The position numbers and the translations under genes are program-made. Shown one piece after another: positions 7,633 through 63,870 of a stretch of DNA of 64,000 bases; positions within the stretch are counted from its first letter, which is position 1, and every line of letters begins with the position of its first letter. The notes below the pieces were generated by a model. That model worked only from the letters and a program-made list of their open reading frames with translations, did no database searches and was not told where the DNA came from. This DNA is from Antedon mediterranea. Its lineage: Eukaryota > Animalia > Echinodermata. The stretch lies in NCBI RefSeq assembly GCF_964355755.1, contig NC_092678.1:14410371-14474370 (forward strand), read 5' to 3'.

Positions 7633-8303
7633 AATGCTTCACTCATAAAATATATATGCATATATTATGCGTTGTGTTGGTGTGTGCGAGTATACACACA
7701 TAGCCTGTTTTATATTATATGTATTCATACTTTTGCTATAATAAAAGAAAGAATCCACATGTACTGGAAGTAATAAACTGAATATCTTCTTTTTTAAGAA
7801 AAAATGTATAAATAATGATATTATAAAAACACTGATGCTTTTTGATGATGAACAACTCTAAAATGTATATAGGAAATGTTTTTTTTAAATTTTGTATCTA
7901 TTATGTTGTGTTTATTGTTTTATGTTTTTTATGTAAAAGGGTCCTGCGAAAACAGAAGTGTAAACTTCTCTATGCAGGATCGTTGCCATTATTTATGCTA
8001 TGAAACTGTATTTATAAACGATGAGTAAATAAATGTGAATCGAATTGAATTGAATTGAAGTGAACATATGTGCAAAATTTGAAAACTTTGTCATCCGTGT
8101 AACGTTTTTGACCCTAAGGCACCCCACTATGGGTATGTTAAACTGTTATACTAAAGTTTATGTTTATTATGTATTCATTGTGGTATTTATAATTAATATT
8201 CTAATAAGCTGAAAATAATCGATATAATGTTATCAAAACAACTCATCTAATCATAGGAATCAATTTTAAAAACTTGTGTTTTTTATGTTTTTTTTTTGTA
8301 CAG

Positions 8304-8839
8304 AATCAGCCGAGAAGAAATTTCAGACAATGTTGCTACAAGTATCCACCTGGTGTGATTATCATGACCTACTTGATAAGCTGAAGGTGTTGTGCAATGA
8401 CATGATAACATATTACAGTGACCTACAGAACGCCGGAAGCACCATGGAATTATTCATTGTATTAAAGCGCTGTGGCCATCTTACCGTCACCGATTTTAAA
8501 GTTCTTATCGACGCAATTAATGTCACTGGTTCAAATGGTGTTCTTGAGGTCAACGAACTGCTAAAAGACAGATATGAAGATGCCGACCACAATGTAAATT
8601 CTTTCTCTCCATATCGACAAAAGTTGATTAAATTCGGTAAAGCACTTTCTGAAGAAAATATAACAACGCTTACTCATCTTAAAGGTTTTTCAAAGAAACA
8701 ACGTAAGAACCAGTGGACTATGATACTAGATCTCGACCGAAGACGTATCATTACAGAAGAAGGATTGCCATCATTTATTGATGATTTAAAGGAGAATGGA
8801 ATGAGTGTTGTTGCTGAACAGTTAGAAGATCCAATTTAG
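8304..8839 (+). CDS. Terminal exon encoding tandem death-effector-domain-like (DED-DED) module
   Basis: Polypyrimidine-cAG acceptor at 8302-8303 and open frame to TAG. Two helical repeats: FQTMLLQVS...LKVLC...MELFIVLKRCGHLT and SPYRQKLIKFGKALSEENITTL...MILDLDRRRII, both resembling DED patterns. Confidence 0.75.
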
Positions 8840-16447: not shown

Positions 16448-16487
<40 letters not shown>

Positions 16488-17537: not shown

Positions 17538-18269
17538 GTTCTTGGTGTAATCATTCAAAATGACCTGAAATGAGAACTTAACACTAATCATATTGTGTCT
17601 AGAGCTTCTAGACGTTTATTTTCCTTTTGCATTTTGAAGAAAGCAGGTATCTTAATTAATGATCTGTTGACTGTTTATATGGCGTATATAAGACCTATTT
17701 TAGAATATGCTGCCCCTGTTTGGCATGGCGCTATCACTAAGGACATGTCCAAGTCTATTGAAAAGGTACAAAAGAGAGCTTTGCGTATCATGCTAGGTAA
17801 CAACTATTTGTGCTATGATCATGCATTGTCTATTACTGGTTTACCTACTCTTGTTGAGAGAAGACACAAACTTGTGTTGTCTTTCTGGGAAGGCTTATTA
17901 AAATCCGAGCTGTTTAGAGAAATACTTCCCCCTCTTCATAAGCCAGCTCGGTCTCTCAGATTCAACCGCTTTCTAGAAGTACCTCATTGTAAAACCAGCA
18001 GACTTAGGTCGTCTCAAGTTCCCACTATGGTGGATATAATTAATATGCACCACTAGCTCTATTTTAGATATGTAATAAGTGAATGTTTTAAGGTTTTTTA
18101 TTCATCTATGTTTTTAATTTTATGGTACGATATCTAATTTTAATAAGATGTTTCTATTTTTATAGCAACTTTAACAAATTTTTAGGCATTTGTAATACAA
18201 TTCATTTCAGTCCTTGACTGCCGTTTTATATACCGAATAAAAAAATATATATATAATGTAATACAATAT

Positions 18270-26621: not shown

Positions 26622-29600
26622 GTGAGTTGTAAAGTTGAAGAACAATACTATACGAAAACGGCTACGAAAAACATCAATCATTGGTTGTTTTTTTTAAATA
26701 TTGATGTAACTTATTTTATATTTCATATTTGACCGTTACAGATTACAAGATGCTTTTAAGATGAATGACTTGCAACAAATTAAAGAAATATGTCAGAAAA
26801 CTCCAGATCTTTTGAAAAACAAAGATAAGGTAAAACAAAATATAGGCTTTCCATATTACTAATAAGAAAGTATAGTCATTCAATTAGTTCCAAGAAGACA
26901 ATACATTTATGTAAATTGTAAACTGTAATCATTATACCTATATTCAAATACAATGAATACTGTTTAATATCCGGGATCAATAACATATGCTTCAGTGACG
27001 AATGCTGCAAATTAAATAGAAATTAACTACCTGACAAACTACTTAAATCTGTCAAAGTATTTAAAAAGTTGTATAAAAATAATTTGCTCTTAACTTATCA
27101 ATGAGTGTTACAAATATGTTTACATTTACATTGTTTTTTTGCTTTTTTGGTTTTATCGCACTATCTTTGAGTTCATATGCCAACATGTTTAGCTAGTATT
27201 GTCTCGTCCTGTGCTTCAATTATGTTTGTATCATGTATTAATTATTTTGTTAAGGTGGCCAAATATTGTACGAGCTTTGCTCTTTTTTGGTCATCCTTCC
27301 ATTTTTGCTATATATTCATGACACTTGGTTATATTGGAAAATAAAAACTGAAACTGAAACTGAAACATCAGTACTTACTGTTATTGTTTGTCCTACATTA
27401 TGAGATCGGTGTACAGTTACTATAAAAGGTTGGACAAATAGTTAGACGGTCAGAACATTGTATACCTCCATGGTCAGAATGACAGTTTCGAAGTCAAGAG
27501 CCATATTTTGTATGTTTTGAAATAAAAAAACTTCAAAAGCATAATTGAGTTCATCTAAATCCAATCTAGTAAGACTTTTTCGAAATAATTATACAGATAA
27601 TTTATAACGGTGACTAGACTCGACAATAACAACAATGTATTCACTTTTTTCTCTTATCATTAAAGTTATAACAATTATTTACTTCAGGATTGTACAATAA
27701 TTGTTTATGCTTTTGTTTTTCATGATTTCTAAGATCAGCATGTTATTAAACGTAAAGCATAAATGTAACTGATTTTAGTAATATCATAACAGTGTTGAAC
27801 TTACAAAAATTGTCAATGTAACATGAATACAAAACATGTTTGCATTACAGCTGTAATCTATATTTATAAACTACATGGTTATGATTTCTTTCTAGTTTGG
27901 ATACACTCCTCTACATAAGTATTTACTTTGTGCCAACCCTACAACAGAAATAGTGGCTTGTCTCATACGGCATGGCGCACCAGAAACACCACGAACTACG
28001 GTAACATACAATTATAGTATGTCTATTATGTCATTATCGGTTCCAGCAAACATCTCTATTACATTTATGACGTCTCATTTATAATTATTATGAATTATGT
28101 AGAATTAGTTATTACAAATTCAAAAACATTTATTGAATAAAAAATTAATTTAATTAAAAACTATATTGTGTATACATGCCATGAACACATTTTGAAGTGC
28201 GTCTCGCCAATTATGACGTAATATAATCGATTGATTCACACATTTGTATTACAAATAAATAGTAATTCTTCACTTTATCAGTCTAGTTTGTTTAAGTTGG
28301 TTTAAATAATATAATAATTATTCCTTGAAATAATTTTATTTGGGTCCTATTTTATATAAAGGCGTACATTTATTTTTTTATCCAATCAAGTACGATAGAT
28401 AAGCACGAAATAAAAAAGTAAATACTACGTCGTTTTGCAAGCGTACCGGTTTTCAAGAACACTTTTGTTAGTTGCGTTGACGTTGATGCTATATATAACA
28501 AGCCAGATGTGTTGTAAATAAAGTACAAAGTGAATGTAGCTGATTTGTATTGTTTTGTACACTCAGAAGATTTTTGTCAAAACAATGTAGAATTTACAAC
28601 CATTATTAATGTGGCATGACCGAAATATATGTTTGCCTTACAGCTGGAATTTATATTTAAAAATTACTACATGATTATGATTTCTTTCTAGACTGGAGAC
28701 ACTCCACTACATACGTATTTATTCAATGCCAACCCTACAACAGGAATAGTGGCTTTTCTCATACGAAATGGCGTAGCAGTAACATCAAAAAATAAGGTAA
28801 TAATACAATAGTAGGTCTAATTATGCCAGTATTAATAAACATTATCGGTTTATCTGTCTAGATTTTTTTAGTTTTTTACAGAAGATTTTGTCAAAGCAAT
28901 GTAGAATTTACGACCACTATAATTGTGATTGTTTTACAGCTAGAATTGCTATTTATAAATATGATTTCTTTCTAGTATGGAGACACTACACTACATAGGT
29001 ATTTGCGATATTCTAACAGCAATAGTGACTTGTGTCACATAGTATGGCGCATCAGTAACATCACAACATGTAGTAATGTACATACAATCATAGTGGTATT
29101 TATGTCATTATTATGAAAACAGTATCTGTTCCAGCAAACATCTCTATTTCATTTATAATTTGTCATTTATAATTAATATTAATTATTTTGAATTATTTAT
29201 TTCGAATTTTAGAAACAGTTATTGAATGAAACAATAAATGAAGACATGCCATAACCGACAGGTGTTTTTAGAAACAATATTACATAACATAAAGTCAATT
29301 ATGACGTCATATAAATCGATTGTCATTCACACATTGTATTACAATTATAGTAGCACTTCAATATATCCGTCTAGTTTTTTAAGATGGTTTAAATAATATA
29401 ATAATTATCTTTGAAATAACTTTATTTGGGTCCTATTTTATATAAAGGCGTACATTTTCCTTTTTTTTATTCAATCAAGTACGATAGATACATACGAAAT
29501 AAAAAAAGTACTTACAATGACATTTTGCAAGCGTTCCGGTTTTCAAGTACAATGTTGTTAGTTGCGTTGAAGTTGGTCAGTACGGCCATGAATGTAGCTG

Positions 29601-32600
29601 ATTTTTATGTTTTGTACTTTCGGAAGATTTTGTCATAACAATGTAGAATTTACAATCATTATCAATGTGGCATGACCGAAAAATATGATTGTATACAGCT
29701 GGAATTGATATTTATAAACTGCATGCTTACGATTTCTTTCTAGAATGGAGACACTCCACTACATATGTATTTACGATGTGCCAACCCTACAACAGAAATA
29801 GTGGCTTATCTCATACAACACGGCGCATCAGTAACGTCACAAAATAAGGTAACATACAACATTATAGTAGGTTTATTATGCCAGTATTAATAAAACATTA
29901 TCGGTTCCAGCAAACTTCTCTATTCCATTTAAGACGTCTTATTTATATTTAATATGAATTATTTAGAATTAGTTATTGTAATTTCAAACACAGTTATTGA
30001 ATAAAACAATTCATTAAAAACTATTTTGTAGACGTATGCCATGAACGATATGTTTTTGTACAATGTATTATTCTATAAGTGTAGACGATGGTTCTCGAAA
30101 TAATAATGATTCGGGTAAAAAGGTTTTAGAAGGACGTTTTCCTTGTACGTTTTCTGTCGGTTACCGGTATTGAACATGCTTGACATTCGTTAAACTAAAC
30201 CTACTCTGTTTCACAGTGTCTTAGATGATTAAAAACATTTTAATAAAGTATAGTGTTTATTGTTTGGTAGGGCCCTTAAAATGAGAGGGGGCGAGGTGGA
30301 GTTCAATTGAGGGAGGTGCTTATTCGAATGATATGTTTAATTTTTTAGTCTTAATAAAATAAAATGGTAACATTTATAATCACATGGAATCCTCTACTAC
30401 AAATAGTATAACTGTGTAATTATAAATATAATACAATATTGTGTGTATTATAAATGTGGATGAGAGTTTATTAGATAGTTGGGTAGGGGGGGGGGGTTAT
30501 TATTCAAAGTGATGTTTTATTGGAGAGGCGTTTATTCAAATAAATACCATCCTAATAATTAATACATTATTTAACTTAAACAGCTTTTAAAACAATGCAA
30601 TCATAGTGGTATTTATGTCATTATTATGAAAACAGTATCTGTTCCAGCAAACATCTCTATTTCATTTATAATTTGTCATTTTAATTAATATTAATTATTT
30701 TGAATTATTTATTGCGGATTTTAGAAGCAGTTATTGAATGAAACAAAAATGAGACATGTCATAACTGAAATGTGTAGAAACAATATTACGTTACTTAATG
30801 TCAATTATGACATAATTATAATCGATTTTCATACACACTGTATTACAAATATAGTAGCACTTCGATATATCTGTCTAGTTTTTTAAGTTGCTTTAAATAA
30901 TATAGTAATGAACTCTTGAAATAATTTTATTTGGGTCCTATTTTATAGAAAGGCGTAACTTTTCTTTTTTGATTCAATCAAGTAAGTATTCCGCCAAGTA
31001 TTGCAAACGTACCGCATTCCAAGGACACTGTTATTGACGTTTGTCAGTACGGTATGCTATATGTAACAAGCCAGATGTTTTGTAGATAAAGTACAGAATG
31101 AATGTAGCTGATTTGTATTGTTATTTACATTCGGAAGATAATAATGTAGAATTTACAACCATTACTAATACGGCATGACCGAAAAATATGATTGCATTAC
31201 AGCTGGAATTTATATTTATAAACTACATGATTATGTTTTCTTTCTAGTATCGGGACACTCCACTACATAGATATATATTAAATGCCAACCCTACAATAGA
31301 AATAGTGGCTTGTCTCATACACCATGGCGCAGCAGTAACGTCACAAAATGAGGTAATGCACATACAATTATAATATGTTTCTTGTGCCAGTTTTAATAAA
31401 ATCTTATCGGTTCCAGCAAACATATTTATTCCATTTATAATTAATATAAATTATTTAGGATTATTTATAGCAAATTCAAAAACAGTTATTAAATAAAATG
31501 ATTAATTAATTAAAAACTATAATTTTTAGACATGCCATGAACGATATATGTTTGTAGAAACAATTATTTCATAGTATACTAAGTGCGTCTCTCAAATGAC
31601 ATCATATAATATAAAAATAAAACTATAATTTAATTCGTCATTTTTACGAATTATAGGTGTTCATTTTTATAATTTTATTGATAATAATATTTTTTAAACA
31701 TGCACGTATGTTAACATACAATTGGAAAATGTTGATGTATGCCATCCTATTATACGCTTATAGTGCTGTAATATAAAAAAAAAAAAAATACTTACTCCTA
31801 CGTTTTGCAAGTCTACCGGTTTTCAAGTAGACTGATTGTTAGTTGCGTTGACGTTGGTCAGTACGGCATGTTATATGTAACAAGCCAGATGTATTGTAAA
31901 TAAAGAACGAATGAATTTAGCTGATTTTAATTGTTTTTACACAAAAGAATTTACATTATTAACGTGAAATTGAGATATAATTATAAACATGACTATGATA
32001 TCTTTCTAGAATAGAGACACTCCACTACAATTGTATTTACGATGTGCCAACCTTAAAACAGAAATAGTGACGTGTCTCATACAGTATGGCACATCAGTGA
32101 CATCAAAAAATAAGGTAGTGCACATACAATTATACTAGGTATATTATTTCTATATCATTTATGACGTCTCATTTATAATCTACTATAATTAATGCCCGTC
32201 CATATTTTTGTATAATTATTGTAATATTGTTGTATTATGTTGGAGACCCCTTTGGAAAAAAGCTTCTGCTTTCCATGCTTATTTTATTGTCTAGTCTTGT
32301 ATTTTTATATTTAATGTTTCTCTTTTTATTTCATTTACATTATACTGTTTTATATATTTGTACTGTATTTGGAAAGCAATAAATATTACTTACTTACTTA
32401 CTTACTTCAATGGGTATGAGCCCCGCTATTTTTCAGCAAGGAAATCATTCAATATACAATGTATACCATGACCGGAAAACTTCCTTATTTGGGGAAAATC
32501 GTTGGACCTAAATTCGTTTTATTAACTAATCAATAACTAATTATCTAACGCAACTTAATTAGTAAACAGGGTTACATCAGGTGGTTAAAATCAGTACCGA

Positions 32601-35600
32601 ACGTATAAACCAAATTTACCATCGAGTTAAAATTCTAGAAGTAACGCGCGATTTTCCGAATTGTGCCCTTAATGTAAATGTGTATATTACACCTATAACG
32701 TACGTATGAACTGCGCCAAAAACCTACCTTATCCACTTTATTTTGTAACATATTACAATTGATTGAATTATTTAGAATTACTTGCTGCAATAATTATTTA
32801 AAGTAATTATACAAGATCCTACATTTCTTGTGAGATTTGTATATTGTGCAAATTAATTATTGTTCAACCATGTTTTATGTGGACCTGTCATTATAAAATA
32901 GTTATTTACGCCCGTATTCTTAAACCGGACTTTAGTCGTAGACTTTAAAAATGGTGTCATTTTAATTCATAAACCGAACTTCAACTAAATCGTAACTAAA
33001 TCAGGCCAACTTCGACTAAATCGAGACGGTTTTTGATTTTTTTTTTGTCCTGGAAGGGGCAGGCTAAATGGTCGACTAAATGGTTTTTAAACGATGTTTA
33101 TGAAAAACGTAACAGTCATTGAGTTGTTGGCCAGATATTGAAGAATGAAATATCTATTTTGATATTAGCTTAATTAAATATACATTGGTATAAGTTTTAA
33201 TAATGAAAATCATCTTTATTTACAACTGTATACAATTTACATTATTTTCTTTGCGCAAGTCCGACTTGAACTACGTCACGCCATAGCGACAATGGGAGAT
33301 GTGGAAATTCACCACGCGATGGAATGTTTAGGGTGGGTGGGCCTAGCGCCTTCTTGTCACGCTATGAAGTGCGTAGTTCGCGATCATACTTTGTGGGAGG
33401 CCTAGAAAATATGAAAGTTACTGTACGCCATGGTTCCTAAATATATTTTGAAGATTTTGTTTGTTGTTAATCAAAAGTACTTCACTGTTAAATTAATACT
33501 GATCTTGAATTTTAAGTTATAGCTCGAACTACGATTTTTTCAGTCGAACTTTGAACTACGACTAAAGTCCGGTTTATGAATATTATTATACGGGCGTTAG
33601 AATCATGACTGAAAGTAAGAGAATGCACAGACAATTGATATACTTTGGTCTACGTTCACAACATATGCACCAGCAAAACCTTTTATTTCAATTTCTTTGT
33701 GTATTATTATCATTACCTAACTATTATTATTTATTAATTTCTGCAATACATATGTATAAACTCCATGATTCTAATTTCTTTATAGGACGGAAACACCCCA
33801 CTGCATGAATACATGCGTTCAAATGGACCTAATTTAGAAGCAATAGACTATTTCATGAAGCAAGGTGCATCAGTAAGAGCACTAAATAAGGTAATATATG
33901 GCAAGAACAATAGTTATTCTAGGACAAAAATCTGAAAAGATGCTTAGAAATCAAGTTAGGGGCAGTGGAATGTTAGAGGCTGTCAACATAGCCTTCTGAT
34001 CACTCTAAGCTCTGTTGACACTTAATATTTTGTCTCGTCTTGAAATGGCGGCCATTTTTCAAAATGGCTTTCATTTTTATATACAATGTGCATAAAATCG
34101 GATCTAAATAAGGTAGATGCACGATCTTGGTGTCTAAACACATGTACTTCAGACACGGAATCCATTAGGCCTTGTTGACACTTCTTTTTGGCTTTATATT
34201 GAAATGGCGGCCATTTTTCAAAATGGCGACCAATTATATAAAAATGTGCTTAAAATCTAAATATGGTAGATCTACCATATTTAGATTTTAGGCACATTTT
34301 TTTTTCGTGAATATATTCACGATCTTGGTGTCGATACACATGTACTGTAATAGGTTTTTTTTAAACTACTCGTATCAAAAAACCTTAAATCAAATATTTT
34401 CCTCTTGTACAAAAATGGAGTTTTTTGGACAAGTTGTTTTCAAACAGTTTCAGTTTACTTGTTACTTTAAGACTGCTCGCCGGCTTTTTGAAAATTCACT
34501 ATCTTTTAAGACTAGCAGGTCTAAAAACAATACTAAAAATTGGTCCAAAATTGGGACCGTGGTCCGGAATGCCCCAAAATTTAATGGAGTGGTACTTGAC
34601 CACAAATCTATCTAACCCTAATTTTGGTAAAGACCTTGCAATAGCTTTTTGAGTAATCCTGCAAACAAACAGACAAACAAACAAATGAAAGCACTCAGAA
34701 ACTGATTACTTGGCAAATATATATCAATTCAATTCAATTCAATTCAAAATTCTTTAATCATCCCACACGGGGCAATTCAACTAAAAAGGTCTGGATTAAA
34801 ATGATCTTACAAAATATACAAAATATCACAATACACAGAACAACAACAACAAAAAAAGTCAAGTCAATGTTCAAGAATTTAAGAGTCGAATAGCCACTGG
34901 CAAAAACGAATTCCTTTTCCGGTTTGTTCTACATGCCGGGCATCGAAAGCGACGCCCATGAGGCATGAGCTCGAAATCACTGAACAAGGCATGGTTAATA
35001 TTTTTTAGAATAGCTCTACTTTTTCTACTGATAGGGAGCATGTTGAATGATACAATTTTTGGTTTTAGGTATTATCTTTACATGGTTCAAATCATGGGGT
35101 TTATAATTTATTAGGTACGCGATAGACTACATATATCTCCTTAGCGGAGGTAAATAATATTAGTTTATGTAATAGGAGAGCCTAAAGTCAAGATGAAACA
35201 TCTGTGAAGTTACATGCAAATGGATTCAACAAAAGCTGAGGCTTTAAAATCCTAGTCATGGCTCTATACAAACTAAACCTTTACCAATTTTGTGAAACAA
35301 ATTCCAGATTGACGATTTCATGAACAGATAAATTAGGCAACCATTTTGAAAAATGTTAGCTACTGTGCATTTAACTTAAAAAATTAATTAATCAAACTAT
35401 TTAAAGTTATTTATTATATATTTAATGGATTTCTTGCCTGAAAAAAACATTTTGTTTAGACACCAAGATCATTTATCTAGCCTAATTAGTTACACTTTTA
35501 AGCACTTTTTAGAAAAATTATGCAGCAAACCCTTTCACTGCGGAAAATATATTTAAGAAAAATATATGATATTTTAAGAAATTGCAAAATACTAATTGAG

Positions 35601-44600: not shown

Positions 44601-47600
44601 CAATTGTTAAATCCAAGTAGAATTAATTCATGTTTTAGTATTACTTAGGAAAAAAAACAATTTGAGTGTCTTATTTATGAAATGCTATACATCAGACAAT
44701 TAAAACCTAGTCTGAATAAACAATGTGACTCTGCTAAAGCTAATATTTTCATTTAACAGGATGTTAGTCAATATGCATTGTGTTATTTAAACTTTGAACC
44801 TTGGCTTGTGTTTTACCCTTTCACACCAAAAGCAAAACAACTCCGGAAACATTCCGATGTTGACGCCCCGGTGTTTTGGTGTGAAATGTAAAATCAAGCA
44901 ACCCCGGAGTTTAAAACTGCGGGGTTGAAAAGCTGAAACATTCCCCGGCGAGCGAACTTCGGGGACACCCCGGTGTTTTGGTGTGAAAGGTACCAACAGC
45001 AAATTATGTATCTTTGCCTGATTTTTTTAAAACTTAAACTGTAGTTGAAGAATAAGATTATTAAAAACAAATATTTAGTGATCTTTTGAAATTTGAGTTT
45101 CTTTTTATTGAAAAATATTAATTTTTAAAATGACTTCCTATTCCAAACAATTGGTGACCTTGGAGAGGTTGAACGCATTTTTTGGCTGGCTAGCAACCAT
45201 ACAGCGCCACCTACCGTCCACGCAGCGCCACCTACCGTTGTGACGTTAGCACCGCAGAACTTTATGTAAACAAACAAAATAGAGGGTGACATTTAAAATT
45301 TTATTTTATAAACCCCGGTGTTGCTAGGTTGATGTGAAAGGGGTATCTCCGGAGTCTTTTGCTGTTTTGAATGGTCATAAACCCGGAGTACCTCCGGAGA
45401 TCACTCCGGAGTTTTGGTGTGAAAGGGGTATTATATAATTAGTTGCTTTTTAGAATTTCCTCATTGGAATTGATAATGACACCATGATAGAGTAGAAACG
45501 TCGCTCTTTTTAAGCCTTATTTTTCTATTACATATTGCAATTGATTTAGTTATTTAGAATTACTTGCCGCAATAATTAGTTAGTAGTAATTAAACAATAT
45601 AAACAAGACAGGTACATACTGTCTTGTAATCTACCTCTACTCTACATTTAGTTAGATACCATCTTGTTAAAGATATAGCCTCTCTTTAGCGACAACCACC
45701 AATACCCCTTTATTTAATTTAGTGACCACTTCTTTTAAAGAACAACTACCCCTTGTAAGGATCCATCTCTTTTAAAAGACCACCACTCGTAAGAAAGGTG
45801 GTTCCTATGATGTAGGCCTATGAGTCACATAAGAGTTTAAAGGACTTTGGAAACCATAATCAATTCAAACATACACTTAAAAACATATTCTGCATTGCTA
45901 TTATGATTTAATTAAGATCTGCTTGTTAATTGATTTTTAATAATAATTTATTTATATGACAACAACAACAAATCATGTTATCAGTAATTGTATCTAACAT
46001 TGTCATTTATAAGAATATTTATATTTGATGTTTATGATTTCTTCACAGAATAGAAACAAACCGATAAATATTTATCTGGAGCGTGATGACGTTAAATTAG
46101 AGATATTGTTTTGTCTGATAACCAATGGTGTATCCCCCACATTAACAAAAGAGGTAATCTTAAGTTTTATTCTATAAAAATTTAAATTGAACGTCATCTG
46201 AAAATAGTACACGTTTGCTTAATATTATTATTTGTTTTGCTTCGTTATTGTTCATCATATTATTCTCTTCAAATGCAAGAAGGTAATGTAACATGATGGA
46301 ACTGCTCTTGGTATAAATAAAACATTTTAGCTACTTTCGGATAATTTGATTTAAAAATATTTATTTATTAAAAATATATCATTTTTTATTTTTTTTAGGA
46401 AGGAAGCAATGCTCTACATGTACATCTAAGTGGTAGATATGTTAAACCTACGTTAGAAATAGTGACTTATCTCATTAAGCTTGGTGTTACTCCAACATTA
46501 CAAAATAAGGTAATGTACATAAGAGTGGGCCTATATTCCCGGTGGCATTATGTTTTTTCCTATCCAATTAAGGCAGAAATCATGAAGAATCCATTACCTT
46601 AATTAATTGGTATTATAAAGAATTGCATGGATAGCTGATCTACTTCCTAAATAACTAAACGTAACCCTCTAAATATTCTCTCTCAACTATTACTCTACAA
46701 AAAAAAAACATGTTCTTGAAAGACCTCGAATCAAAGGCTCCAGTGTAGTAGGTTAAAGTCACTAGACCAAACATTTCAGTTGGCAAACGCAGTTCACACA
46801 GATTATTTAATCTATATGCATGCTTATATAGCTCAATCTATAATGTGCCGTATTATGTCATAATTATTCTAATGAATTATTCATGATTTCTGCCATACAT
46901 TGTATATGATAATAATTTATTTATATGACGAAAACACCCCACTGCATGAATACATGCGTTCAAATGAACATACATAAGTAGTAAACTTTCTTACGAAGCA
47001 ATGTTCATCAGTAACAACACTAAATAAGGTAATATTGGGCTAGAGAACATTTCAAAAAAGGGAAAGCACAGACAATTGATATAATTTGGTTACGTTCACA
47101 ACATATGCATCAGCAAAACCTTTTATATCAATTTCTTTGTGTATTACTTATCATTACCTAACTATAATTATTTTTTGCAATACACTGTATGTATACACTT
47201 CATCTATATATAAATGATGGTTAATTCTGACATAGGCGAACAAAATGGAAAAACTTCGGTATAAATCTCCGCCTTGGATACCTACCTTATCTTTCTTAGA
47301 TGTACCGCGAAACCTAGATTTGATAACATTAGTTTTCAGTACTACGCTATTGTTCCATTTTTGTCTTTAACAACGACAAAATTTAGCGTTACCTATCGAA
47401 ATTTGTGGATATCACAGGGTTATTTTCACACTCTCGCGCTGTTGTTCAACTGGCTACCGAGTCCGTCACTTCTGGCAAAATGGCCGTTGGTGGCGTCATT
47501 CAATATTAAATACAAATATTTTATATTTAGTGGTTCAACGAATCGTGAACTAGGCCTATAATTTATTTGTTTTATATTCAACTATCAATTACAAAGGCCT

Positions 47601-56600: not shown

Positions 56601-59600
56601 TATTAACAATATTATTATCAAAGTATTGCAATACTATATATCAGTTGTAAGTTTATTCTCAAAGGGCTCATAAATTTACCTACTTGTGTTAAACCAAGGG
56701 CTCGTGCATGCATTTACCTACAAACTGGAAGTCTGAGAGATTGGAATGTTCCATTCATCGCAAATCAATACATCTGTATAAACGTATATCAAATCTATAA
56801 AAATAATATTTTTTTAAGAAAATCGGCCTGTCTTCAACATTATGATGCAGTACTCGAGCTGTTCAACCGATTTTCAGCCATTAAAAACAATTATCGTAGG
56901 AGGAGATAGGAAAATGCGATGCATCCTCGTATTATTGTATGTGGGTATTTTTCAAGATGGACATCCATTAGACAGTGTATACCACGATCGGAAAACACAA
57001 ATATTTGTGGCCAATCGTTGAACCTAAATCCGTTTTAATATTCAATAACTAATTATCGAACTAAATTTAATTAGTAAACAGGGTTACATCAGGTGGTTAA
57101 AATCAATATCGAAAGTACGAACCAGCTTTATATACCATCGAGTAAACATTCTAGAAATAACGCGCGATTTAAAGAATTTTTCCCTTACGTAAATTTATAT
57201 ATAGATACCTCTTTTAACGTACGCATGATCTGCACCGCAAATATATGTTTTCCACTTTATTTTGTATCATATAATTGATTGTGTTATTTAGGCTTACTTT
57301 CTGCAATAATTATTTAGTAGTAATTAAACAAGATCCTACAGTTATTGTGATTGGTATAATAATTATGAAAGTATTAAGTTGACTATGTTTTATGTGGACA
57401 TGCCATTATAAAAGGGTGAATTTAGAATCATGACAGGAATGCAATGAATGAATGAAAGCAATGTTCACATTAACCTGTATGTATAAACTACACGATTATG
57501 ATTTCTTTTATCAGTAAAATTTCAAAATAAGGGAATGCACAGACAATTCATATACGTTCACAACATATATCCAACACCAAAACCTTTTATTTCAATTTCT
57601 TTATGTATTATTTATGATACCTAACAATAATTATTTTCTGCAATAACACGTATGTGTAAACTCTATGATTATACTTTCTTTATAGGACGGAAAAACATCA
57701 CTGCATAAATAATTAGACATTTGAATGATAGTTGTTTAGCGATGTGTTTTCTCAAAAATGTGTAATCAAAATTCTATCAAATTGACTACGTCGTCCATGC
57801 ACCATACATATACACTATACTAATACGAAAATTAAATTTCATTAAATGTTACTTCAAACTTAATTGCAAATACAGTAACAAACAAAACCATTTTTTAACA
57901 TTAATTATAAATACTATAACTTTAATGCGTGAATTAGTTACCTTTGAAGAGACGTAGTTTATTATTGTCTGAGTTATTACCAGATTGAGGGCGCAGTTAT
58001 TTTGTATGGAAGGCAGGCTGCACTCAATTTTAAGTTTATCCCGAGATATTTAGCTTTTAAAACGTATTTACAGATTGTTTACTATGTTTAAATTTAATTT
58101 ATTAATTAAATAGTATATAGTGTAAGGTAATGATAGTTAATTATTATCGCACTTATCATATCTTTATTACTTTTTACTAAGGCAAAAAAGGCGTAAAATG
58201 AGTTTCGTCACGTGATTGATGTAAATACGTCACCAACGGAGATACAAATTGGAGGGATGTTCATTCTATATTAAATTTACGGGGAAATTATGTTTATTTA
58301 TCTCTTTTTTTACCCCATTACAAAATGTAATGTTTTGGTGTGATGTCACTTACAACAAATGGCATCCAAATAATCAATAACTGGAAGAACACGACGCGGA
58401 ATTGTCAACATTATTGTATCTTCCATAACACTCAACATCTCCTTAACACAATACTAATAGATTCTAATAATATTCATGGTATGTGGTACTGATATTTTTT
58501 TACATTTAATAATAAATTTCGTGATAATAATGTTTTTCTCTATAGGACGGAAACACACCGCTGCATGAATACATGTGTTCAAATAAACCTACCTTAGAAG
58601 CAGTAAACTATCTCAGGAAGCAAGGTGCATCAATAACAGCACTAAATAAGGTAATATAGGTCTATAAATAATTTATATCATTACACCTAACGTACGTATG
58701 ATCTTCGCCGCAAACATATCTTATCCACTTTATTTCATACCATATTATATTTGATTGAGTTATTTAGAATTAGTTGCTGCAATAATGAATTAGTAGAAAT
58801 TAAACAAGATCCTACAGTTATAGTGAGATTAGTGTATTGAGAAATGAAATTATTAATTTTTTAAATAAATTTTATGTGGACATGTCATTATAAATTGGTT
58901 GAATTTAGAATCATGACAGAAAGCAATGTTAGCAAATTAGTTTGGTCACGTGATTGATGTAAATGCGTCACCCGCTGAACTACAAATTAGAAGAATGGTC
59001 ATTGTATATTAAATTTACGGCGAAATTATGTTTATTTATCTGTTTTTTACCCCATATTTAAAAATGTAATGTTTTGGTGTGATGTAACTTACAACATTCA
59101 AAAGCAAATACATGTTTTTTGGCTATACTAAAAATAGCTTCACACTTGACTACATCATCTTCGGAATCACTCCAGAATCATCAAATGGAATCAAAAGCAT
59201 ATAACACATCTGACGTGTATGATTAATGAAGTGGGCTGAAATTGTTTAGAACGCGGATGACCTAGATATCTAATATACTTTTATGTTTATAGGAAGGAAA
59301 AACAGCAGTATCCGTTTTAGAAGAAAATACGAAGATAGAAAAAACAAAACAAATCATGATTTTAGAGCATTTTGACAGTAAGTAAAAAATATTATATTAA
59401 AATTGAAGTTGATGTAACTTTAAATAGAAAAGGTTCTCCATATTAGCAATACACATTTACATAAAACCATGAATTCGAAAACCGAAATGATACATGTATG
59501 TTATGCGTATTTTTTAAAATTTATAATTAGAACTGCTAGTTCCTCCAGAAATATTTGCCATGGGTAAAGAGGCTATTAAGATATATAAAGATGAATTGAA

Positions 59601-62600
59601 AGATGGTAAAATTGCAGTTGTAAATTCAAGATGTATGTTTCTTGGGAAGGAAGGTGCTGGTAAGACAAGCTGCGTAAAGTCCATGCTTAGAGAGAGGTAA
59701 CAAAATACAATTGATACAAATATGTGTTAACATAAGCTAATGGTATTAATCAATTATTTCAACGTAAATGTATACGTGTATTATGTTGACTAATGCTTTC
59801 CTCTCTTGAATTTGTATAATATAAAGCTTTTTAAAATTGATTTGTATCAACTAGTTTGATAATTTCAATTTGTTAAACTTGCATGTTGGATGTAATGGAT
59901 TAAAAGTATTTAATAAATTATGTATCAACTTCAACGTACATGTTTACAATAGATTCAACCCCAAAGAACAATCGACGGATGGTATAGTTACAGCCACCGT
60001 GTTTAAAGCAACTGGAGAGAGTAAATGGAAGAAGATTAAAGAGGAAAACGGTAAAGACAATGTGATGAACCGAACTGTAAATGTTTCTGTTGCTTCCTTT
60101 ATTATCCTTATTTATATTTCTTTAACATTGATAAACTCTGAGTCAGAAATAGACACCGCGTTGTGTGAATGCTTAAATGATTGACATCACACAGTAATAG
60201 GCATGATACATGTTAACATTAATTCCGTCTTTCTGATAAACATTAAACAACATCTTTGTATACGATCTTCATTTTTTACCAATTGGTTTATTTATACAGA
60301 TTCTGAGCTTACCAAGAAAATGCGTGAAAATGCATTAGCAGAAAAAGTTGACAAAAAGTTAAAACAGGGTATGTACAGCAAAAATAATGGAAGCTTGTTA
60401 ACATTTGAATGTATTTACTTTTCCTTTATCAATCATGATAATCGAAACTGTAGATTAATGATTGGATATTAAGGAAGAAAACCTAGATGATGGTATAACA
60501 AGGCCAACAGCCATTAAGTCGCGTGCTACAATGCATAGTGATACCGGACCGACAGACAAACAGACCGACAGACAGACAGACCGACAGACAGACGGACCGA
60601 CCGACATAGTGAATTATACTGACCGAAATTACTGAACATGTTTGAAAATGTTGAAATGTTTAAAAACATTTATATTTTTTTAATTTACGCTTGAGTAGCC
60701 TGTCACATTTGACGTGCTCGTATAACGTAATTTCGAGTTGAAAAGTAATTCAAGAAAACAGAAATCGGGCAAAAAGTGTGCGCAACAACATTTAACGCGC
60801 AGTGCGCGCGCAAAAATCTGCGCACTCATGGCAATTTTGTAAACGCTTAAAATTGCCTGAAACGTACTCTTATTTCATCGAAAATAAATTTTGAAAATGT
60901 TAAGCGCGCGTACGCATGCGTTACATGCGCTACGCACGTCATTGTATTGCCATATGATGATTTATGCCCTGAAATTTATGAGTACCAAATTTTATTTAAT
61001 TGTGATTCATGGTTGTTAAAATATGATTACAAACGTGATTTCATTAAATCGTGCGTAGACCGCGTAATTTTTTATGGCGCACCGTGAAAACATAACCACA
61101 TCGATTCCTGGCCATAAGGAATATTCTGTGAAAAATTTACTTAGCTAGATTAAACTGATATCAAGATAAGGTCATAAAGCGATAAAACGCATAGTGATAC
61201 CGGACCGACAGACAGACAGACAGACAGACCGACAGACAGACAGACAGACCGACCGACCGACTTAGTGAACTATAGAGTCGCTTCCACGCGACTAAAAATG
61301 GTGAACTTTAAAGTTCTTTTTAGGATCACCATAAGATAACAAAAAATCACATGATTAATATCAATTTAAAAACATGACATTAAAAAAAGACAAATGAAAA
61401 GTACTGGCAATAGTAAATCATAGGATATTATTAAAAAACAAGGCCAACAGCCATTAAGTCGCGTGCTACAATGCATAGTGATACCGGACCGACAGACAAA
61501 CAGACCGACAGACAGACAGACCGACAGACAGACGGACCGACCGACATAGTGAACTATACTGACCGAAATTACTGAACATGTTTAAAAATGTTGAAATGTT
61601 TCAAAACATTTATATTTTTTTAATTTACACGTGCGTAGCCTGTCACTTTTGACGTGCTCGTATAACGTAATTTCGAGTTGAAAAGTAAGTCAAGAAAACA
61701 GAAATCGGGCAAAAAGAGTGCGCAATAACATTTAACGCGCAGTGCGCGCGCAAAAATCTGCGCACTCATGCCAATTTTGTAAACGCTTAAAATTGCCTGA
61801 AACGTAGGCTACTCTTATTTCATCGAAAATAAATTTTGAAAATTTTAGGCGCGCGTACGCATGCGTTACATGCGCTACGCACGTAATTGTATTGCCATAT
61901 GATGATTTATGCCCTGAAATTTATGAGTACCAAATTTTATTTAATTGTGATTCATGGTTGTTAAGATATGATTACAAACGTGATTTCGTTAAATCATGCG
62001 TAGACCGCGTAATTTGTTATTGCGCACCGTGAAATCATAACCACATCGATTCCTGGCCATAAGGAATATTCTGTGAAAAATTGATTTAGCTAGATTAAAC
62101 TGATATCAAGATAAGGTCATAAAGCGATAAAACGCATAGTGATACCGGACCGACAGACAGACAGACAGACCGACAGACAGACCGACAGACAGACCGACAG
62201 ACAGACAGACAGACAGACCGACCGACCGACATAGTGAACTATAGAGTCGCTTCCACGCGACTAAAAACTTAACAATTATAAAGAGGGTAAAATAGATTCA
62301 CACTGATGATGGGTAATGCTTCTCGAAACATGTATATAGGTGTCTACAACCATCGGTAACATCAGATTGAAACCTTCTGAAACGAGTTGTTTTATTTTCA
62401 TGTTAATACGTCTAACTTCAAGTCAAAATGTTATTTTCGTGAACTTTAAAAATTATTCTATTGATTTGAAATATGATTCCTCCCACAAAATAAAAATTTC
62501 TTATAATTAACATTTAAAGAAAACAAGCATGCCTGAAAACCTGGACAGCGATCAAATGTGTTTTGTTTCCATGTGTTTTTTTTTATCCTACAATAGATAG

Positions 62601-63870
62601 CAATGAAAACCGGAGCCTTTGGAACAAATTCGAAGATTTTATAAGAAGTAAAATAGGAAGTGATGATTTAGAGAGTATTTCAAATGAAATAACTAGCATA
62701 TGGGACTACGCTGGTCAACTGGATTACTATATAACGCATAGGGTATGCTTATCAATATGTTAATTATTAATAAAAGTAGTATTATTAAAGTATGTAAATA
62801 GGATGTACATTGCATTTGACATTATCCCTACAATTAATAGGCAGGCGTGATATCGATATTACCGTTACCGAAATTGTATATCCATACAAACCTATTTTCT
62901 GCCGTAACGTAACCATCCCATTAATATGATTAATTCTTCATTATTATACTATATCGTGGCCAATACAAGCTTAATGACATACTCCGGATAAATTTCCTTT
63001 TCACACCTGATTCATAACACGGGAATGACACTGGTTGCGTGTATTTACACTGCAAAATACCAACCCATGTAAATGTCCTAGATCAATCGAAATATCGCCC
63101 TATCACGCATGAAGAGACACCATAGTAACGGTCTGCTGATAATACCTCCCACAATTTTGTTTTATGGCAATACACACACACATTAAGTCTACTCGGGAAG
63201 AATAATATCTTGAAATAAAAATGAATAACAAATAACAATAAGTTTTAATTATTAAATAAGCGAATAAACAAAATCAATCTTATCCTAATTTTATTTAAAT
63301 TAAATACTATAGTGGGCGAAGATAGTAAACAAACGGGTAAAAATACGCTGAGCGTTTTACACCGCAAACACGGGTTCATCCCGGAAGCGTCCCGGGTTGA
63401 CTTGAGAATGGAGAATGCTCAAAATCATTAAATGCTACATTAATTGTCTGTGTTTTGTTCAGTTTTTCCTTACAAATACAGTGTCGTACTGCGTTGTGTT
63501 TAGTGCGTTGGATAAATTAGACGAACTAGCTAAAAGACGAGATCCAGCATTGGTAAGTTTAATAAGTTAGATTATGCTATTATATTAAAATGTAATATTA
63601 ATAGTTTAATATAAGGTACGTAGGCTATATATAATACACTATAATATCCTTTTAAATCCATTTTACATTTAAAATTAGGGTCCATTAGGAATGACTAATT
63701 TGGACATAATTCTGTTCTGGGTAAGGTCAGTATATGAACATACTGTGGTACAACATGCTTCAGGAAACACCATTTCAATTGATGGCAAAGTGATAAAATC
63801 GCCTCCCATCAGTTTGGTTGCTACTCATATAGACAAATTGCAAGGGAGAACATCAGAAAAGCTGAGAGAG
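26614..63870 (+). CDS. Ankyrin-repeat Roco-family GTPase (ANK array-Roc, COR expected beyond window); multi-exon, 3' incomplete
   Basis: 25 phase-compatible GT-AG coding exons give ~876 aa in the window if all intact ANK exons are included. Roc G1 GKEGAGKTS, G2 STDGI, G3 WDYAGQ, G4 THID and the pre-Roc VPPEIFAMGKEAIKIY motif are present. Confidence 0.88.
26742..26829 (+). CDS. Roco exon 2, N-terminal ankyrin cap (GLQDAFKMNDLQQIKEICQKTPDLLKNKDK)
   Basis: cAG acceptor, GTaaaa donor, phase 2-0; ends ..KDK like an ANK linker. Confidence 0.75.
27896..28000 (+). CDS. ANK exon A1 (FGYTPLHKYLLCANPTTEIVACLIRHGAPETPRTT)
   Basis: 105 nt, phase 0-0, AG/GT, TPLH motif. Confidence 0.85.
28692..28796 (+). 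CDS. ANK exon A2 (TGDTPLHTYLFNANPTTGIVAFLIRNGVAVTSKNK)
   Basis: 105 nt, phase 0-0, AG/GT. Confidence 0.85.
28976..29072 (+). pseudogene. ANK pseudo-exon A3 (8-nt deletion, frameshifting)
   Basis: 97 nt between AG and GT; begins YGDTTLHRYLRYSN then loses frame relative to its siblings. Confidence 0.8.
29744..29848 (+). CDS. ANK exon A4 (NGDTPLHMYLRCANPTTEIVAYLIQHGASVTSQNK)
   Basis: 105 nt, phase 0-0, AG/GT. Confidence 0.85.
31248..31352 (+). CDS. ANK exon A5 (YRDTPLHRYILNANPTIEIVACLIHHGAAVTSQNE)
   Basis: 105 nt, phase 0-0, AG/GT. Confidence 0.85.
32010..32114 (+). CDS. ANK exon A6 (NRDTPLQLYLRCANLKTEIVTCLIQYGTSVTSKNK)
   Basis: 105 nt, phase 0-0, AG/GTagtg (weaker donor). Confidence 0.75.
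32420..32687 (-). mobile_element. Helitron H1 5'-end fragment
   Basis: Matches 19985-20245 (cctaaattcgtttt..agtaaacagggttacatcaggtggttaaaatcagtaccgaa). Confidence 0.75.
32909..33596. mobile_element. PIF/Harbinger-like MITE
   Basis: TIR cgcccgtatt..aaaccggactttagtcgtag / ctacgactaaagtccggttt..tacgggcg; TTA TSD on both sides; the empty site gaatttagaatc is seen in sibling intron copies. Confidence 0.8.
33786..33890 (+). CDS. ANK exon B1 (DGNTPLHEYMRSNGPNLEAIDYFMKQGASVRALNK)
   Basis: 105 nt, phase 0-0, AG/GT. Confidence 0.8.
34725..35030 (-). mobile_element. LINE 3' fragment with (AATTG)n tail
   Basis: caattcaattcaattc tail; the minus frame reads HALFSDFELMPHGRRFRCP..RKRNSFLP, an L2/Rex-like terminus. 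Confidence 0.6.
36156..37443. mobile_element. Tc1/mariner-like non-autonomous element
   Basis: About 140-bp TIRs (ccgggtagcgatattttttacgctcaacgaaactgccagctagccagaatactg...) flanked by TA on both sides. Confidence 0.75.
37829..39032 (-). mobile_element. 5'-truncated L1/Tx1-type LINE with poly(A) tail and 14-bp TSD
   Basis: zf-RVT-like region (FNYKLLNRILATN..CGRCGEVQDEEHMFFTC); T-run at left end; TSD tatctaccttattt at 37815-37828 and 39033-39046. Confidence 0.85.
39456..39560 (+). CDS. ANK exon B2 (DGNTPLHEYMRSNEPTLEVIDYFMKQCASVTVLNK)
   Basis: 105 nt, phase 0-0, AG/GT. Confidence 0.8.
41491..41627. repeat. 24-bp tandem repeat, ~5.5 copies (ctgattgtataaaagttaaaaatt)
   Basis: Direct observation. 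Confidence 0.8.
41950..43930 (-). mobile_element. Degraded non-LTR retrotransposon nested in the Penelope pair
   Basis: Minus ORFs 43124-43360 (IGIQQG..FKIYIN..YLDDIVL) and 42070-42318 resemble the 18270-20660 family. Confidence 0.65.
44814..45430. mobile_element. MITE (PIF/Harbinger-like TIR taccc(c)tttcacaccaaaa) with internal ggtgtgaaa/ccggag repeats
   Basis: Inverted termini; it interrupts the plus Penelope copy at a site that is empty in the minus copy. Confidence 0.75.
46049..46153 (+). CDS. Unique ANK exon C (NRNKPINIYLERDDVKLEILFCLITNGVSPTLTKE)
   Basis: 105 nt, phase 0-0, cAG/GTaatc; divergent ANK repeat. Confidence 0.8.
46399..46509 (+). CDS. Unique ANK exon D (EGSNALHVHLSGRYVKPTLEIVTYLIKLGVTPTLQNK)
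   Basis: 111 nt, phase 0-0, tAG/GTaatg. Confidence 0.85.
46927..47028 (+). pseudogene. ANK pseudo-exon B3 (acceptor AG lost, in-frame TAA)
   Basis: ttatat|GAC instead of tatag|GAC; ..NEHT* stop; 102 nt. Confidence 0.85.
47203..48237 (+). mobile_element. Non-autonomous Helitron, family H2
   Basis: 5'-TCtatatata ... gggtgcgcgagcaaacc-ttCTAG-3', inserted between A and T of the conserved intron motif cttca|tgattataa; no TSD. Confidence 0.85.
48258..48362 (+). CDS. ANK exon B4 (NGNTPLHEYMRSNEPTLEVVDYLTKQGASVKALNK)
   Basis: 105 nt, phase 0-0, AG/GT. Confidence 0.8.
48567..48671 (+). CDS. ANK exon B5 (DGSTPLHEYMRSNEPTLEVIDYITKQGASVTALNK)
   Basis: 105 nt, phase 0-0, aAG/GT. Confidence 0.75.
48721..49915 (+). 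mobile_element. Non-autonomous Helitron H1 (plus orientation)
   Basis: TC...CTAG termini inserted exactly at gcacagacaa|ttgatataattcgg, the empty site in sibling introns. Confidence 0.88.
50063..50167 (+). CDS. ANK exon B6 (DGNTLLHEYMRSIESTLEVVDYLVKQGASVTALNK)
   Basis: 105 nt, phase 0-0, aAG/GT. Confidence 0.7.
50364..50468 (+). CDS. ANK exon B7 (DGNTPLHEYMRSNEPTLEVLDYFMNQGASVTALNK)
   Basis: 105 nt, phase 0-0, aAG/GT; visible in ORF 50226-50483. Confidence 0.75.
50612..52758. mobile_element. Non-autonomous DNA transposon with CAC/GTG termini and 4-bp TSD (Chapaev/CMC-like)
   Basis: Ends cacattca..gacaaaaagt / actttttgtc..tgagtgtg; TSD agca at 50608-50611 and 52759-52762; the empty site tatattgagcaatg occurs in a sibling intron. 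Confidence 0.7.
53082..53186 (+). CDS. ANK exon B8 (DGNTPMHEYMRSNEPTLGIVNYLTKQGASVTSLNK)
   Basis: 105 nt, phase 0-0, AG/GT. Confidence 0.8.
53612..54450 (-). mobile_element. CR1/L2-type LINE 3' fragment
   Basis: Minus frame LYRVLIIPILEYAIPTW..IDKIESVQRRVTRL; it interrupts the conserved B-intron motif. Confidence 0.8.
54531..54635 (+). CDS. ANK exon B9 (DGNTPLHEYMRSSEPTLEVVVYLTKQGASVTALNK)
   Basis: 105 nt, phase 0-0, AG/GT. Confidence 0.8.
54667..57205 (-). mobile_element. Head-to-tail tandem pair of Helitron H1 (54667-55860 and 55862-57205)
   Basis: Two hairpin-CTAG ends (54667, 55862), intact TC end at 57205, A|T insertion site. Confidence 0.88.
57686..57712 (+). pseudogene. Truncated ANK pseudo-exon B10 (DGKTSLHK*)
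   Basis: Conserved upstream intron and tatAG acceptor retained; TAA after 8 codons, then unrelated sequence. Confidence 0.8.
58546..58650 (+). CDS. ANK exon B11 (DGNTPLHEYMCSNKPTLEAVNYLRKQGASITALNK)
   Basis: 105 nt, phase 0-0, AG/GT. Confidence 0.8.
59293..59377 (+). CDS. C-terminal ANK cap exon (EGKTAVSVLEENTKIEKTKQIMILEHFD)
   Basis: tAG/GTaagt, phase 0-1. Confidence 0.85.
59531..59696 (+). CDS. Roc exon with P-loop (LLVPPEIFAMGKEAIKIYKDELKDGKIAVVNSRCMFLGKEGAGKTSCVKSMLRER)
   Basis: Phase 1-2; GxxxxGKT/S Walker A preceded by the Roco-typical PPEI..G...I..Y helix. Confidence 0.92.
59953..60050 (+). CDS. Roc exon with switch I (FNPKEQSTDGIV..KWKK)
   Basis: Phase 2-1; STxGI motif. Confidence 0.9.
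60300..60368 (+). CDS. Roc insertion exon (DSELTKKMRENALAEKVDKKLKQ)
   Basis: cAG/GTatgt, phase 1-1. Confidence 0.8.
60497..61298. mobile_element. Helentron-associated (HINE/DINE-1-like) non-autonomous element, copy 1
   Basis: aacaaggcc start, two (GACA/GACC)n microsatellites, terminal hairpin agtcgc-ttccac-gcgact plus A-run; near-identical to copy 2. Confidence 0.7.
61437..62267. mobile_element. Helentron-associated (HINE/DINE-1-like) element, copy 2
   Basis: Same structure and sequence as 60497-61298, with different flanks about 140 bp away. Confidence 0.7.
62597..62742 (+). CDS. Roc exon with G3 (..ITSIWDYAGQLDYYITHR)
   Basis: Phase 1-0; WDxAGQ..YY.TH Roco signature. Confidence 0.92.
63463..63552 (+). 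CDS. Roc exon (FFLTNTVSYCVVFSALDKLDELAKRRDPAL)
   Basis: cAG/GTaagt, phase 0-0; completes the THxFFL motif. Confidence 0.9.
63679..63870 (+). CDS. Roc exon with G4 (GPLGMTNLDIILFWVRSV..SPPISLVATHIDKL)
   Basis: Phase 0-0; FW..S and PPxxLVxTHxD Roco motifs. Confidence 0.92.

Follow-up and report, generated by a model that had tools for sequence, protein, structure and literature searches.

The 64-kb window analysed here is a stretch of 64,000 nucleotides from the crinoid Antedon mediterranea (NCBI RefSeq contig NC_092678.1, positions 14,410,371 to 14,474,370 of the forward strand), and all coordinates below refer to it. At 27896-32114 (+), it harbors six copies, named A1 to A6, of a unit organized as ...ttctttctag/exon/gta.... 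Five of these six units have the structure AG/105 nt/GT, are open in one frame, and encode one 35-residue ankyrin repeat each. In these five exons, the codons that correspond to the binding positions of designed ankyrin libraries have changed faster than the introns, and the codons of the fold core have changed much more slowly. The reading favored here, with a probability of roughly 0.55, is that diversifying selection acts on the binding face of the A exons. These would be young and expressed duplicates in which the core is purified, the other surface drifts, and the face diverges. The six copies are as follows.

27896..28000, + strand: A1, 105-nt ankyrin exon, FGYTPLHKYLLCANPTTEIVACLIRHGAPETPRTT
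28692..28796, + strand: A2, 105-nt ankyrin exon
28976..29072, + strand: A3, 97-nt copy with an 8-nt deletion, TTLH in place of TPLH, with the AG and the GTAATG donor still present
29744..29848, + strand: A4, 105-nt ankyrin exon, best Pfam Ank match among the A exons
31248..31352, + strand: A5, 105-nt ankyrin exon with G2R and K35E
32010..32114, + strand: A6, 105-nt ankyrin exon with G2R, H7Q, P15L, and T16K, donor GTAGTG

The Pfam Ank profile (PF00023) matched 12 of 13 scanned exon translations, with A4 reaching E=7.9e-8 and 32.6 bits (cut-off 21.1). The other A exons share 66-71% protein identity and about 81% DNA identity with A4. The 8-nt deletion of A3 was located by pairwise alignment with A4, and its hidden Markov model (HMM) match spans codons 1-14 only. 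Splicing A3 in would break the frame, and this copy would thus be a pseudo- or poison exon. For the intact copies, simulation gave a chance of 0.069 that all five would stay stop-free under neutrality in this AT-rich window (GC 0.27-0.40). In addition, judging from how often the introns carry indels, 1.8-3.6 would be expected per 105 nt, and none is found in the five exons (P 0.03-0.17). The five intact A exons are maintained as coding sequence.

The introns of the A units are homologous across 110-570 nt (p 0.12-0.19), and the units are spaced from 284 bp (A2-A3) up to 1.5 kb. Further along the window, Tandem Repeats Finder reported that 301 bp are duplicated in tandem at 49916-50483 (1.9 copies, 86% match), a segment containing two exons of a second type, referred to as B-type. 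Together, the intron homology, the spacing, and this duplication indicate that the array grew as blocks of roughly 300 bp, each holding an exon and intron sequence, were duplicated in tandem. The distances between neighbours also suggest a basic unit of this size, at 309 bp from B4 to B5 and 284 bp from A2 to A3. Later changes of the array are insertions and deletions within introns. Three segments, 30038-30905 (A4-A5), 31340-31773 (A5-A6), and 32208-33500 (after A6), show a summed contig depth hundreds-fold over their flanks in all four public sequencing runs described below, and are inserted very high-copy repeats. Contigs of other runs also jump whole A units, from 28025 to 29883 (1857 bases) and from 30947 to 31842 (894 bases). 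These joints could be repeat-number variants or paralogues; their sides are only 18-31 letters long, and they were not used as evidence of copy number.

The initial annotation of this locus had listed the letters of codons 1, 8, 11, and 12 in each copy, and these lists are letter-perfect, A3 included. It had also described the scaffold codons (ACT CCA CTA CAT, GCC AAC CCT ACA, and ATA GTG) as nearly invariant even at silent sites. Near-invariance holds, the exceptions being CCT in A1, CAA, CTT, and AAA in A6, and A3. As for the silent sites, low variation was indeed seen, but no lower than the introns show. The whole A exon and the introns carry 0.39 vs 0.32, 0.25 vs 0.25, and 0.29 vs 0.23 changes per site, and the pairwise p is 0.16-0.18 for the exon and 0.16 for the introns. 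Because the whole exon is as diverged as the introns, the silent-site invariance reflects recent exon-plus-intron duplication and not extra constraint. Codon 26 reads H, N, H, H, and Y in the five intact A exons; these are presumably the residues that DARPin design (designed ankyrin repeat proteins) allows at the semi-variable framework position 26.

The structure used to place these codons is that of the paralogue P0012, which consists of a cap and three A-like repeats, and not that of the window's own joined exons. The AlphaFold model of P0012 (predicted local distance difference test 88, predicted template modelling score 0.84) shows helices at positions 5-12 (helix 1) and 17-25 (helix 2) of the repeat. 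In a Foldseek search with this model, the top matches in the PDB were DARPins (template modelling score 0.74-0.80), and 719 PDB matches were found at E<=0.001. A HMMER alignment of P0012 with a DARPin chain set the numbering: through codon 14, codon n corresponds to consensus position n+2; a two-residue insert follows (codons 15-16), and the two numberings coincide from codon 17. Given the helix limits of P0012, codon 1 belongs to the beta-turn, and helix 1 includes codons 8, 11, and 12. The original DARPin set of randomised positions is taken by us to be 2, 3, 5, 13, 14, and 33. Two other published designs were also used. The Nangola library has outward-facing binding positions 2, 3, 5, 10, 13, and 14 (PMC3308923), and ANK-N5C has binding positions 2, 3, 5, 10, 13, plus 33 (PMC4308713). 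Codons 1, 8, 11, and 12 are positions 3, 10, 13, and 14, all of which are randomised in the Nangola library (PMC3308923). Thus, the placement of the variable codons in the beta-turn and helix 1, as first proposed from the sequence, agrees with the model, and their description as predicted ligand-contact positions agrees with the published designs. By analogy with these libraries, the side chains of the four codons are predicted to face the binding surface. As in DARPins, ANK-N5C (PMC4308713), and the Nangola library (PMC3308923), binding positions 2, 3, 5, 10, 13, 14, and 33 are the most variable ones, here among the codons of A1-A6. Unlike these designs, the repeats are natural, 35 residues long, with a two-residue insert between the helices, and their variation is evolutionary.

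Rates were compared in the five intact A exons, which carry 53 parsimony changes over 35 codons (105 sites), distributed 19/20/14 over the three codon positions. Without prior positions, clustering is borderline (dispersion P=0.07; the top four codons hold 18 changes, P=0.078), and the pattern exceeds chance only once codons are grouped by published ankyrin positions. With this grouping, the face codons (35, 1, 3, 8, 11, 12, and 33) change 2.3-3.2 times faster than the introns (P 0.0006-0.011 over three intron baselines). Positions 2, 3, 5, 10, 13, and 14 alone run at 2.4-3.2 times the intron rate (P 0.0006-0.009), and the face codons are also faster than silent sites, with a ratio of nonsynonymous to synonymous rates (omega, or dN/dS) of about 3. 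By contrast, 12 core codons (TPLH, the inner pair of helix 1, the hydrophobic residues of helix 2, and G-A; hereafter core12) run at 0.22-0.26 times the intron rate (P 0.007-0.018), and the 16 remaining codons (other16) at 0.99-1.27 times. The idea of a scaffold without purifying selection, obtained when all non-face codons were lumped, was dropped once core and other surface codons were separated. A tree-free pairwise p gives the same ranking, with 0.37-0.43 for the face, 0.16-0.18 for the other codons, 0.04 for the core, and 0.16 for the introns. Codons 33 and 2 show three changes each.

The enrichment was then expressed as shares of changes. The Nangola positions hold 18 of the 53 changes in 18 nt (binomial P=0.0023; codon permutation P=0.0069; P=0.020 with a multi-base change counted once). 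Codon permutation gave P=0.029 for the DARPin set and P=0.003 for the N5C set, and P 0.0004-0.045 across sets when each multi-base codon change was taken as one event. A fixed-partition codon model fitted by maximum likelihood with a shared synonymous rate estimated a face omega of 2.9-3.6 and an omega of 0.8-0.9 outside the face; for the face, omega exceeds 1 with P=0.017 (DARPin set) and P=0.004 (N5C set). The mean ratio of nonsynonymous to synonymous differences per site (pN/pS) is 1.15 in the A family and 0.65 in the B family, the latter with a mean pN of 0.08 and a mean pS of 0.13.

A further comparison came from the contigs of four public runs, placed on A4 with 50 nt on either side at 85% likeness (79-109 contigs per run). 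Among the 105 exon sites, 19 are listed as variable: 8 of 21 in the face, 0 of 36 in the core, and 11 of 48 elsewhere (face vs rest, P=0.013). Face codons are variable at 8 of their 14 first- and second-position sites, and third positions, taken over all codons, at 4 of 35 (P=0.002); codons 1, 8, and 11 hold four of the five sites at which two alternative letters occur. Among the proteins, P0004 and P0001 have repeat arrays that are most variable at positions 8 and 11-14, and the B-type array of P0151 (A. mediterranea XP_071961256.1) has no peak of variability there. Only one run, X5, has an exon-shaped depth (440-820 inside the exon vs about 30 in the downstream intron), the other three being DNA-like, and only this run has joints going back 99-105 bases, which connect the 3' end of an A-type exon with the 5' end of a further one. 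A bridging string in X5 consists of the last 13 bases of A1 and the first two of A2, which would match the expectation for spliced RNA at the predicted A1/A2 junction. Placement of contigs from the four runs over 13 kb yielded DNA-like contigs and repeat-driven joints, with no usable splice signal.

Several results weigh against diversifying selection, and they are best considered together with the strongest alternative, namely that constraint is only relaxed: the core would be purified, the surface would drift in a redundant array, and the excess at the face would come from noise and an underestimated neutral rate. This alternative is possible, though distinctly less probable. The random-site comparison of M2a with M1a, a site-model test of the kind proposed in the initial annotation, was not significant (twice the log-likelihood difference 1.7-3.1, P 0.22-0.43). 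M0 gave an omega of 1.02-1.10 for the whole exon, indistinguishable from 1 (M0, M1a, and M2a are all our own implementation). Both results agree with relaxed constraint, as does the near-intronic rate of the non-face surface codons. A per-codon likelihood scan gave P=0.012 for codon 1, P=0.007 for codon 8, P=0.08 for codon 11, and P=0.21 for codon 12, and no codon survives a 35-fold correction. Codons outside the face vary too (codon 25 with five changes, 26 with three, and 22, 28, and 29), and the variation at codons 25 and 33 partly resembles CpG decay. The face differs from other16 directly at just P=0.035 in the exons and P=0.16 in the contigs. In the same sense, variability follows the ranking of natural ankyrin entropy (PMC4308713), with, in a hand tally not checked by script, 17 changes per 60 nt at low-entropy, 15 per 21 at medium-entropy, and 16 per 15 at high-entropy positions. 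The correlation of A-exon changes with entropy across the family is weak (Spearman rho 0.29, P=0.09).

The same side of the balance includes the residues that are invariant in the family, as judged on 30 unique repeats of 10 A. mediterranea paralogues for G2, H7, N34, and K35. A1 (N34T and K35T), A5 (G2R and K35E), and A6 (G2R and H7Q) alter them; most of the changed residues adjoin the face, in the beta-turn. A3 is broken, and in the gene's B-type exons changes are not enriched at the face (6-7 of 51 changes). Furthermore, core12 was picked from the ankyrin consensus after the data had been seen, the three intron baselines overlap and share taxa, and several overlapping face sets were tried. 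The sample consists of only five exons with 53 changes, and the nominal P values are optimistic, since the locus was chosen for its appearance. The contig set mixes A-like paralogues from two species and lists only sites above a 20% share, the kind of run X5 is not on record, RNA being a guess, and a 48-aa open reading frame (ORF) derived from A4 and extending into the intron had no scored homologue and two candidates in a shared-word search, which is a weak method.

Against relaxed constraint stands the fact that the face exceeds every neutral proxy used: three intron sets, the pairwise intron p, other16, the synonymous rate, and the third positions of the contigs. In addition, the B-type repeats conserve E8, R11, S12, L33, and K35, and the face residues are therefore not intrinsically free to vary. 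In detail, R11 is kept in 8 of 9 B exons, and these exons vary in helix 2 (codons 19-25), the reverse of the A exons. The conserved face is also seen in A. mediterranea P0151 and P0015. Overall, the proposal of diversifying selection on a recognition surface is carried by the tests in which the face is treated as a class, but not by the random-site and corrected per-codon tests, and the varying non-face codons speak against it.

An improbable alternative is an artefact of mutation or recombination, in which mutations of several nucleotides at once, hypermutable CpG sites, or patches converted by diverged paralogues would concentrate the differences in a few codons without selection. Neighbouring bases do differ in codon 12 (TGT/AAT) and codon 11 (CGA/CTT/TTA/TTC), codons 8, 11, 25, 33, and 35 contain CpG in some of the copies, and many paralogues are available as potential donors. 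However, the enrichment holds with each codon change counted once, few CpG transitions are found among the changes of codons 1, 8, 11, and 12 (codon table read by eye), and a hotspot has no reason to match structurally defined positions. Conversion tracts fit poorly as well, since between the variable codons, codon 9 is unchanged in 5/5 copies and codon 10 in 4/5.

Finally, it is very improbable that the A exons form a decaying copy on the 5' side, no longer contribute to a functional protein, and differ neutrally throughout: the M0 omega near 1, the even spread of changes over codon positions, the broken A3, the loss of the H of TPLH in A6 and of the beta-turn G in A5 and A6, the lack of an annotated A4 homologue, and a P0151 model that begins downstream of the A array would all fit, but core codons run at about one quarter of the intron rate, 5/6 copies keep frame, length, and both splice sites, and the X5 contigs join A-type exons end to start, A1-A2 included, with exon-shaped depth.

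As far as can be judged from sequence, A1-A6 appear to open a ROCO-type GTPase gene, in which they are followed by 12 further repeat exons and then by Roc exons at 59.5-63.9 kb. The other features of this gene, and one upstream, are listed here.

26761..26829, + strand: N-terminal cap exon, MNDLQQIKEICQKTPDLLKNKDK then gt (tblastn with Antedon paralogue N-termini, 47% over 30 aa, E=1e-5)
33786-33890 and 39456-39560, + strand: B1 and B2, B-type 105-nt ankyrin exons, DGNTPLHEYMRSNEPTLEV...
46049-46153, + strand: C0, degenerate repeat with KPIN replacing TPLH and its own acceptor site
46399-46509, + strand: C1, divergent exon of 111 nt
46927..47028, + strand: dead B-type copy, acceptor AG gone, 3-nt deletion, in-frame TAA
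starts at 48258, 48567, 50063, 50364, 53082, 54531, and 58546 (to 58650), + strand: seven intact B-type exons, 105 nt each
59293..63861, + strand: C-terminal cap exon and Roc exons, EGKTAVSVLEEN... at the cap (tblastn of P0001, P0015, and P0069; ORF translations)
8303..8836, + strand: last exon of an upstream paralogue, death-effector domain (DED)-like C-terminus, 57% identity to the P0001 C-terminus and 89% to A. mediterranea P0153

Searching with an HMM of the exons revealed further copies on the + strand only and, within the window, no copy upstream of 27896. An alternative acceptor upstream of the cap exon ends at 26741, so that an extra 5' exon is possible. In total, nine B-type exons are intact, and the window holds 16 intact 105-nt exons and one of 111 nt, all in phase 0, in units down to 284-309 bp. 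C0 and C1 occur in the same order in P0151. The Roc part includes the P-loop GKEGAGKTS near 59.65 kb, the switch II (DxxG) motif WDYAGQ, and WDYAGQLDYYITHR at 62626-62754. The gene leaves the window at 63861, where the best paralogue alignment reaches about residue 616 of P0001. The A array is either spliced on to C0-B-Roc or a separate 5' fragment. The gene model of P0151 starts at C0, after a reverse-transcriptase-like piece. The first approximately 190 residues of P0151, unflagged by Pfam, read by eye like a retroelement polymerase fragment, and this N-terminus is probably an annotation chimera. The piece at 8303-8836 is a single exon, separate from the gene of the A exons, that scores 28.7 bits against Pfam DED (cut-off 35.9). 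It comes from a paralogue of the same ROCO family, which indicates a head-to-tail gene cluster.

In a profile search of 1.84 billion representatives, the top matches were proteins of the crinoid Antedon mediterranea, and all family members found are annotated as 'uncharacterized protein'. According to Pfam, the relatives carry Ank repeats, Roc, COR-A, a weak COR-B, and a sub-threshold DED, and they can thus be described as ROCO GTPases in which an ankyrin array forms the N-terminal part and the C-terminus is a putative death fold. Roc scores 37.5 bits in P0151 and 38.1 in P0001 (cut-off 27), and COR-A 56-63 bits in paralogues (cut-off 35.3). DED scores 26.7-28.7 bits in the last exon of the upstream paralogue, in P0151, and in P0001, below its cut-off. 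A search with Roc-COR returned 40 proteins, 10 from Antedon, 10 from Anneissia japonica (36-65% identity), and the rest from corals, a sponge, and metagenomes (23-27%), with the nearest non-crinoid matches, from corals and a sponge, at 24-27%. This distribution points to a lineage-specific expansion in crinoids. The domain order is presumably similar to that of DAPK1, which we take to be ankyrin repeats, Roc, COR, and a C-terminal death-fold domain, and the matched Roc domain is named 'Roc, domain of DAPkinase' in Pfam. Unlike DAPK1, whose AP-GTPase context has been described (PMC8195603), the crinoid family has expanded and ends in a DED-like domain instead of a death domain. No kinase domain was detected in the window or in the paralogues scanned with Pfam.

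In the favored reading, A1-A6, which arose as one unit of exon and intron was duplicated in tandem, encode the N-terminal end of a ROCO-type protein. Their fold-core codons have been conserved since duplication, whereas the predicted face codons would have been driven to diverge, and each repeat would have gained a different contact surface. Judging from the domain logic, the array may serve as the sensor of an Ank-Roc-COR-DED switch protein, in which ligand binding would be read by the Roc-COR GTPase and relayed to partners with death-effector domains, as in NLR-like sensors. Unequal crossing-over could add or remove repeat exons in frame and lead to new specificities, and selection would then act on positions 2, 3, 5, 10, 13, 14, and 33 of each repeat.

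Two known systems can be compared with this organization. In the leucine-rich repeat (LRR)-ROCO genes of brown algae, each 72-bp exon encodes a single LRR, exons are shuffled and alternatively spliced, and positive selection is reported at concave sites (PMC11378527). As in these genes from Ectocarpus and Saccharina, which are proposed to encode immune receptors, Roc-COR lies behind an N-terminal array with one repeat per exon, exons are equal in length and phase, and exons are duplicated in tandem (PMC11378527). However, the crinoid repeats are ankyrin repeats (105 nt, phase 0) and the algal ones LRRs (72 nt, phase 2), the crinoid family belongs to an animal and carries a C-terminal DED-like domain, and the evidence for selection is much thinner in the crinoid. 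The crinoid gene is therefore an analogue, and not a member, of the brown-algal type. The second system consists of the fungal NLRs with WD40, ANK, or TPR repeats of high internal conservation, which are near-identical apart from a few hypervariable positions under diversifying selection (PMC13449251). Repeat gain, loss, and shuffling, and an array beside an NTPase switch and a cell-death effector domain (a putative one in the crinoid), are common to both. By contrast, the crinoid switch is a Roc-COR GTPase instead of NACHT or NB-ARC, and introns separate the crinoid repeats. With 66-71% protein identity, the A-type repeats are at or below the similarity threshold of 0.7 applied in fungi (PMC13449251), and the B-type repeats are more alike.

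A broader proposal, which is tentative and rather unlikely to hold in full, is that the crinoid Ank-Roc-COR-DED proteins are unrecognised intracellular immune receptors of animals, whose symmetrical repeat exons are duplicated, lost, exchanged, and possibly alternatively spliced, with a diversifying face. Across plants, animals, fungi, and bacteria, intracellular immunity commonly relies on sensors that combine a fast-changing repeat array, an NTPase switch, and a death-fold effector. An immune role of ROCO proteins has been proposed mainly in brown algae, and LRRK2 and DAPK1 have been studied for other reasons. If the proposal is correct, the crinoid family would be an animal ankyrin counterpart of the brown-algal LRR-ROCO and fungal NLR repertoires. 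Its expansion, with one-repeat exons, a conserved core, and a face that changes faster than neutral, would add a new candidate family of receptors to echinoderm immunology, and would let the generation of binding diversity by modular exons be studied as a natural experiment. Neither the crinoid ROCO family nor ankyrin exon arrays under selection were found described in the open full-text literature, paywalled literature lying outside the search.

The window also contains remnants of retrotransposons without long terminal repeats, at 4220-7547 (+), 14622-18056 (+), and 38205-38774 (-). Their ORFs correspond to an endonuclease-reverse transcriptase and to RVT_1, and an ORF of the zf-RVT type sits in an intron of the ankyrin array. 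Lastly, several (GACA)n and (GACC GACA GACA GACA)n microsatellites are found at 60547-62231, in the introns between the Roc exons.

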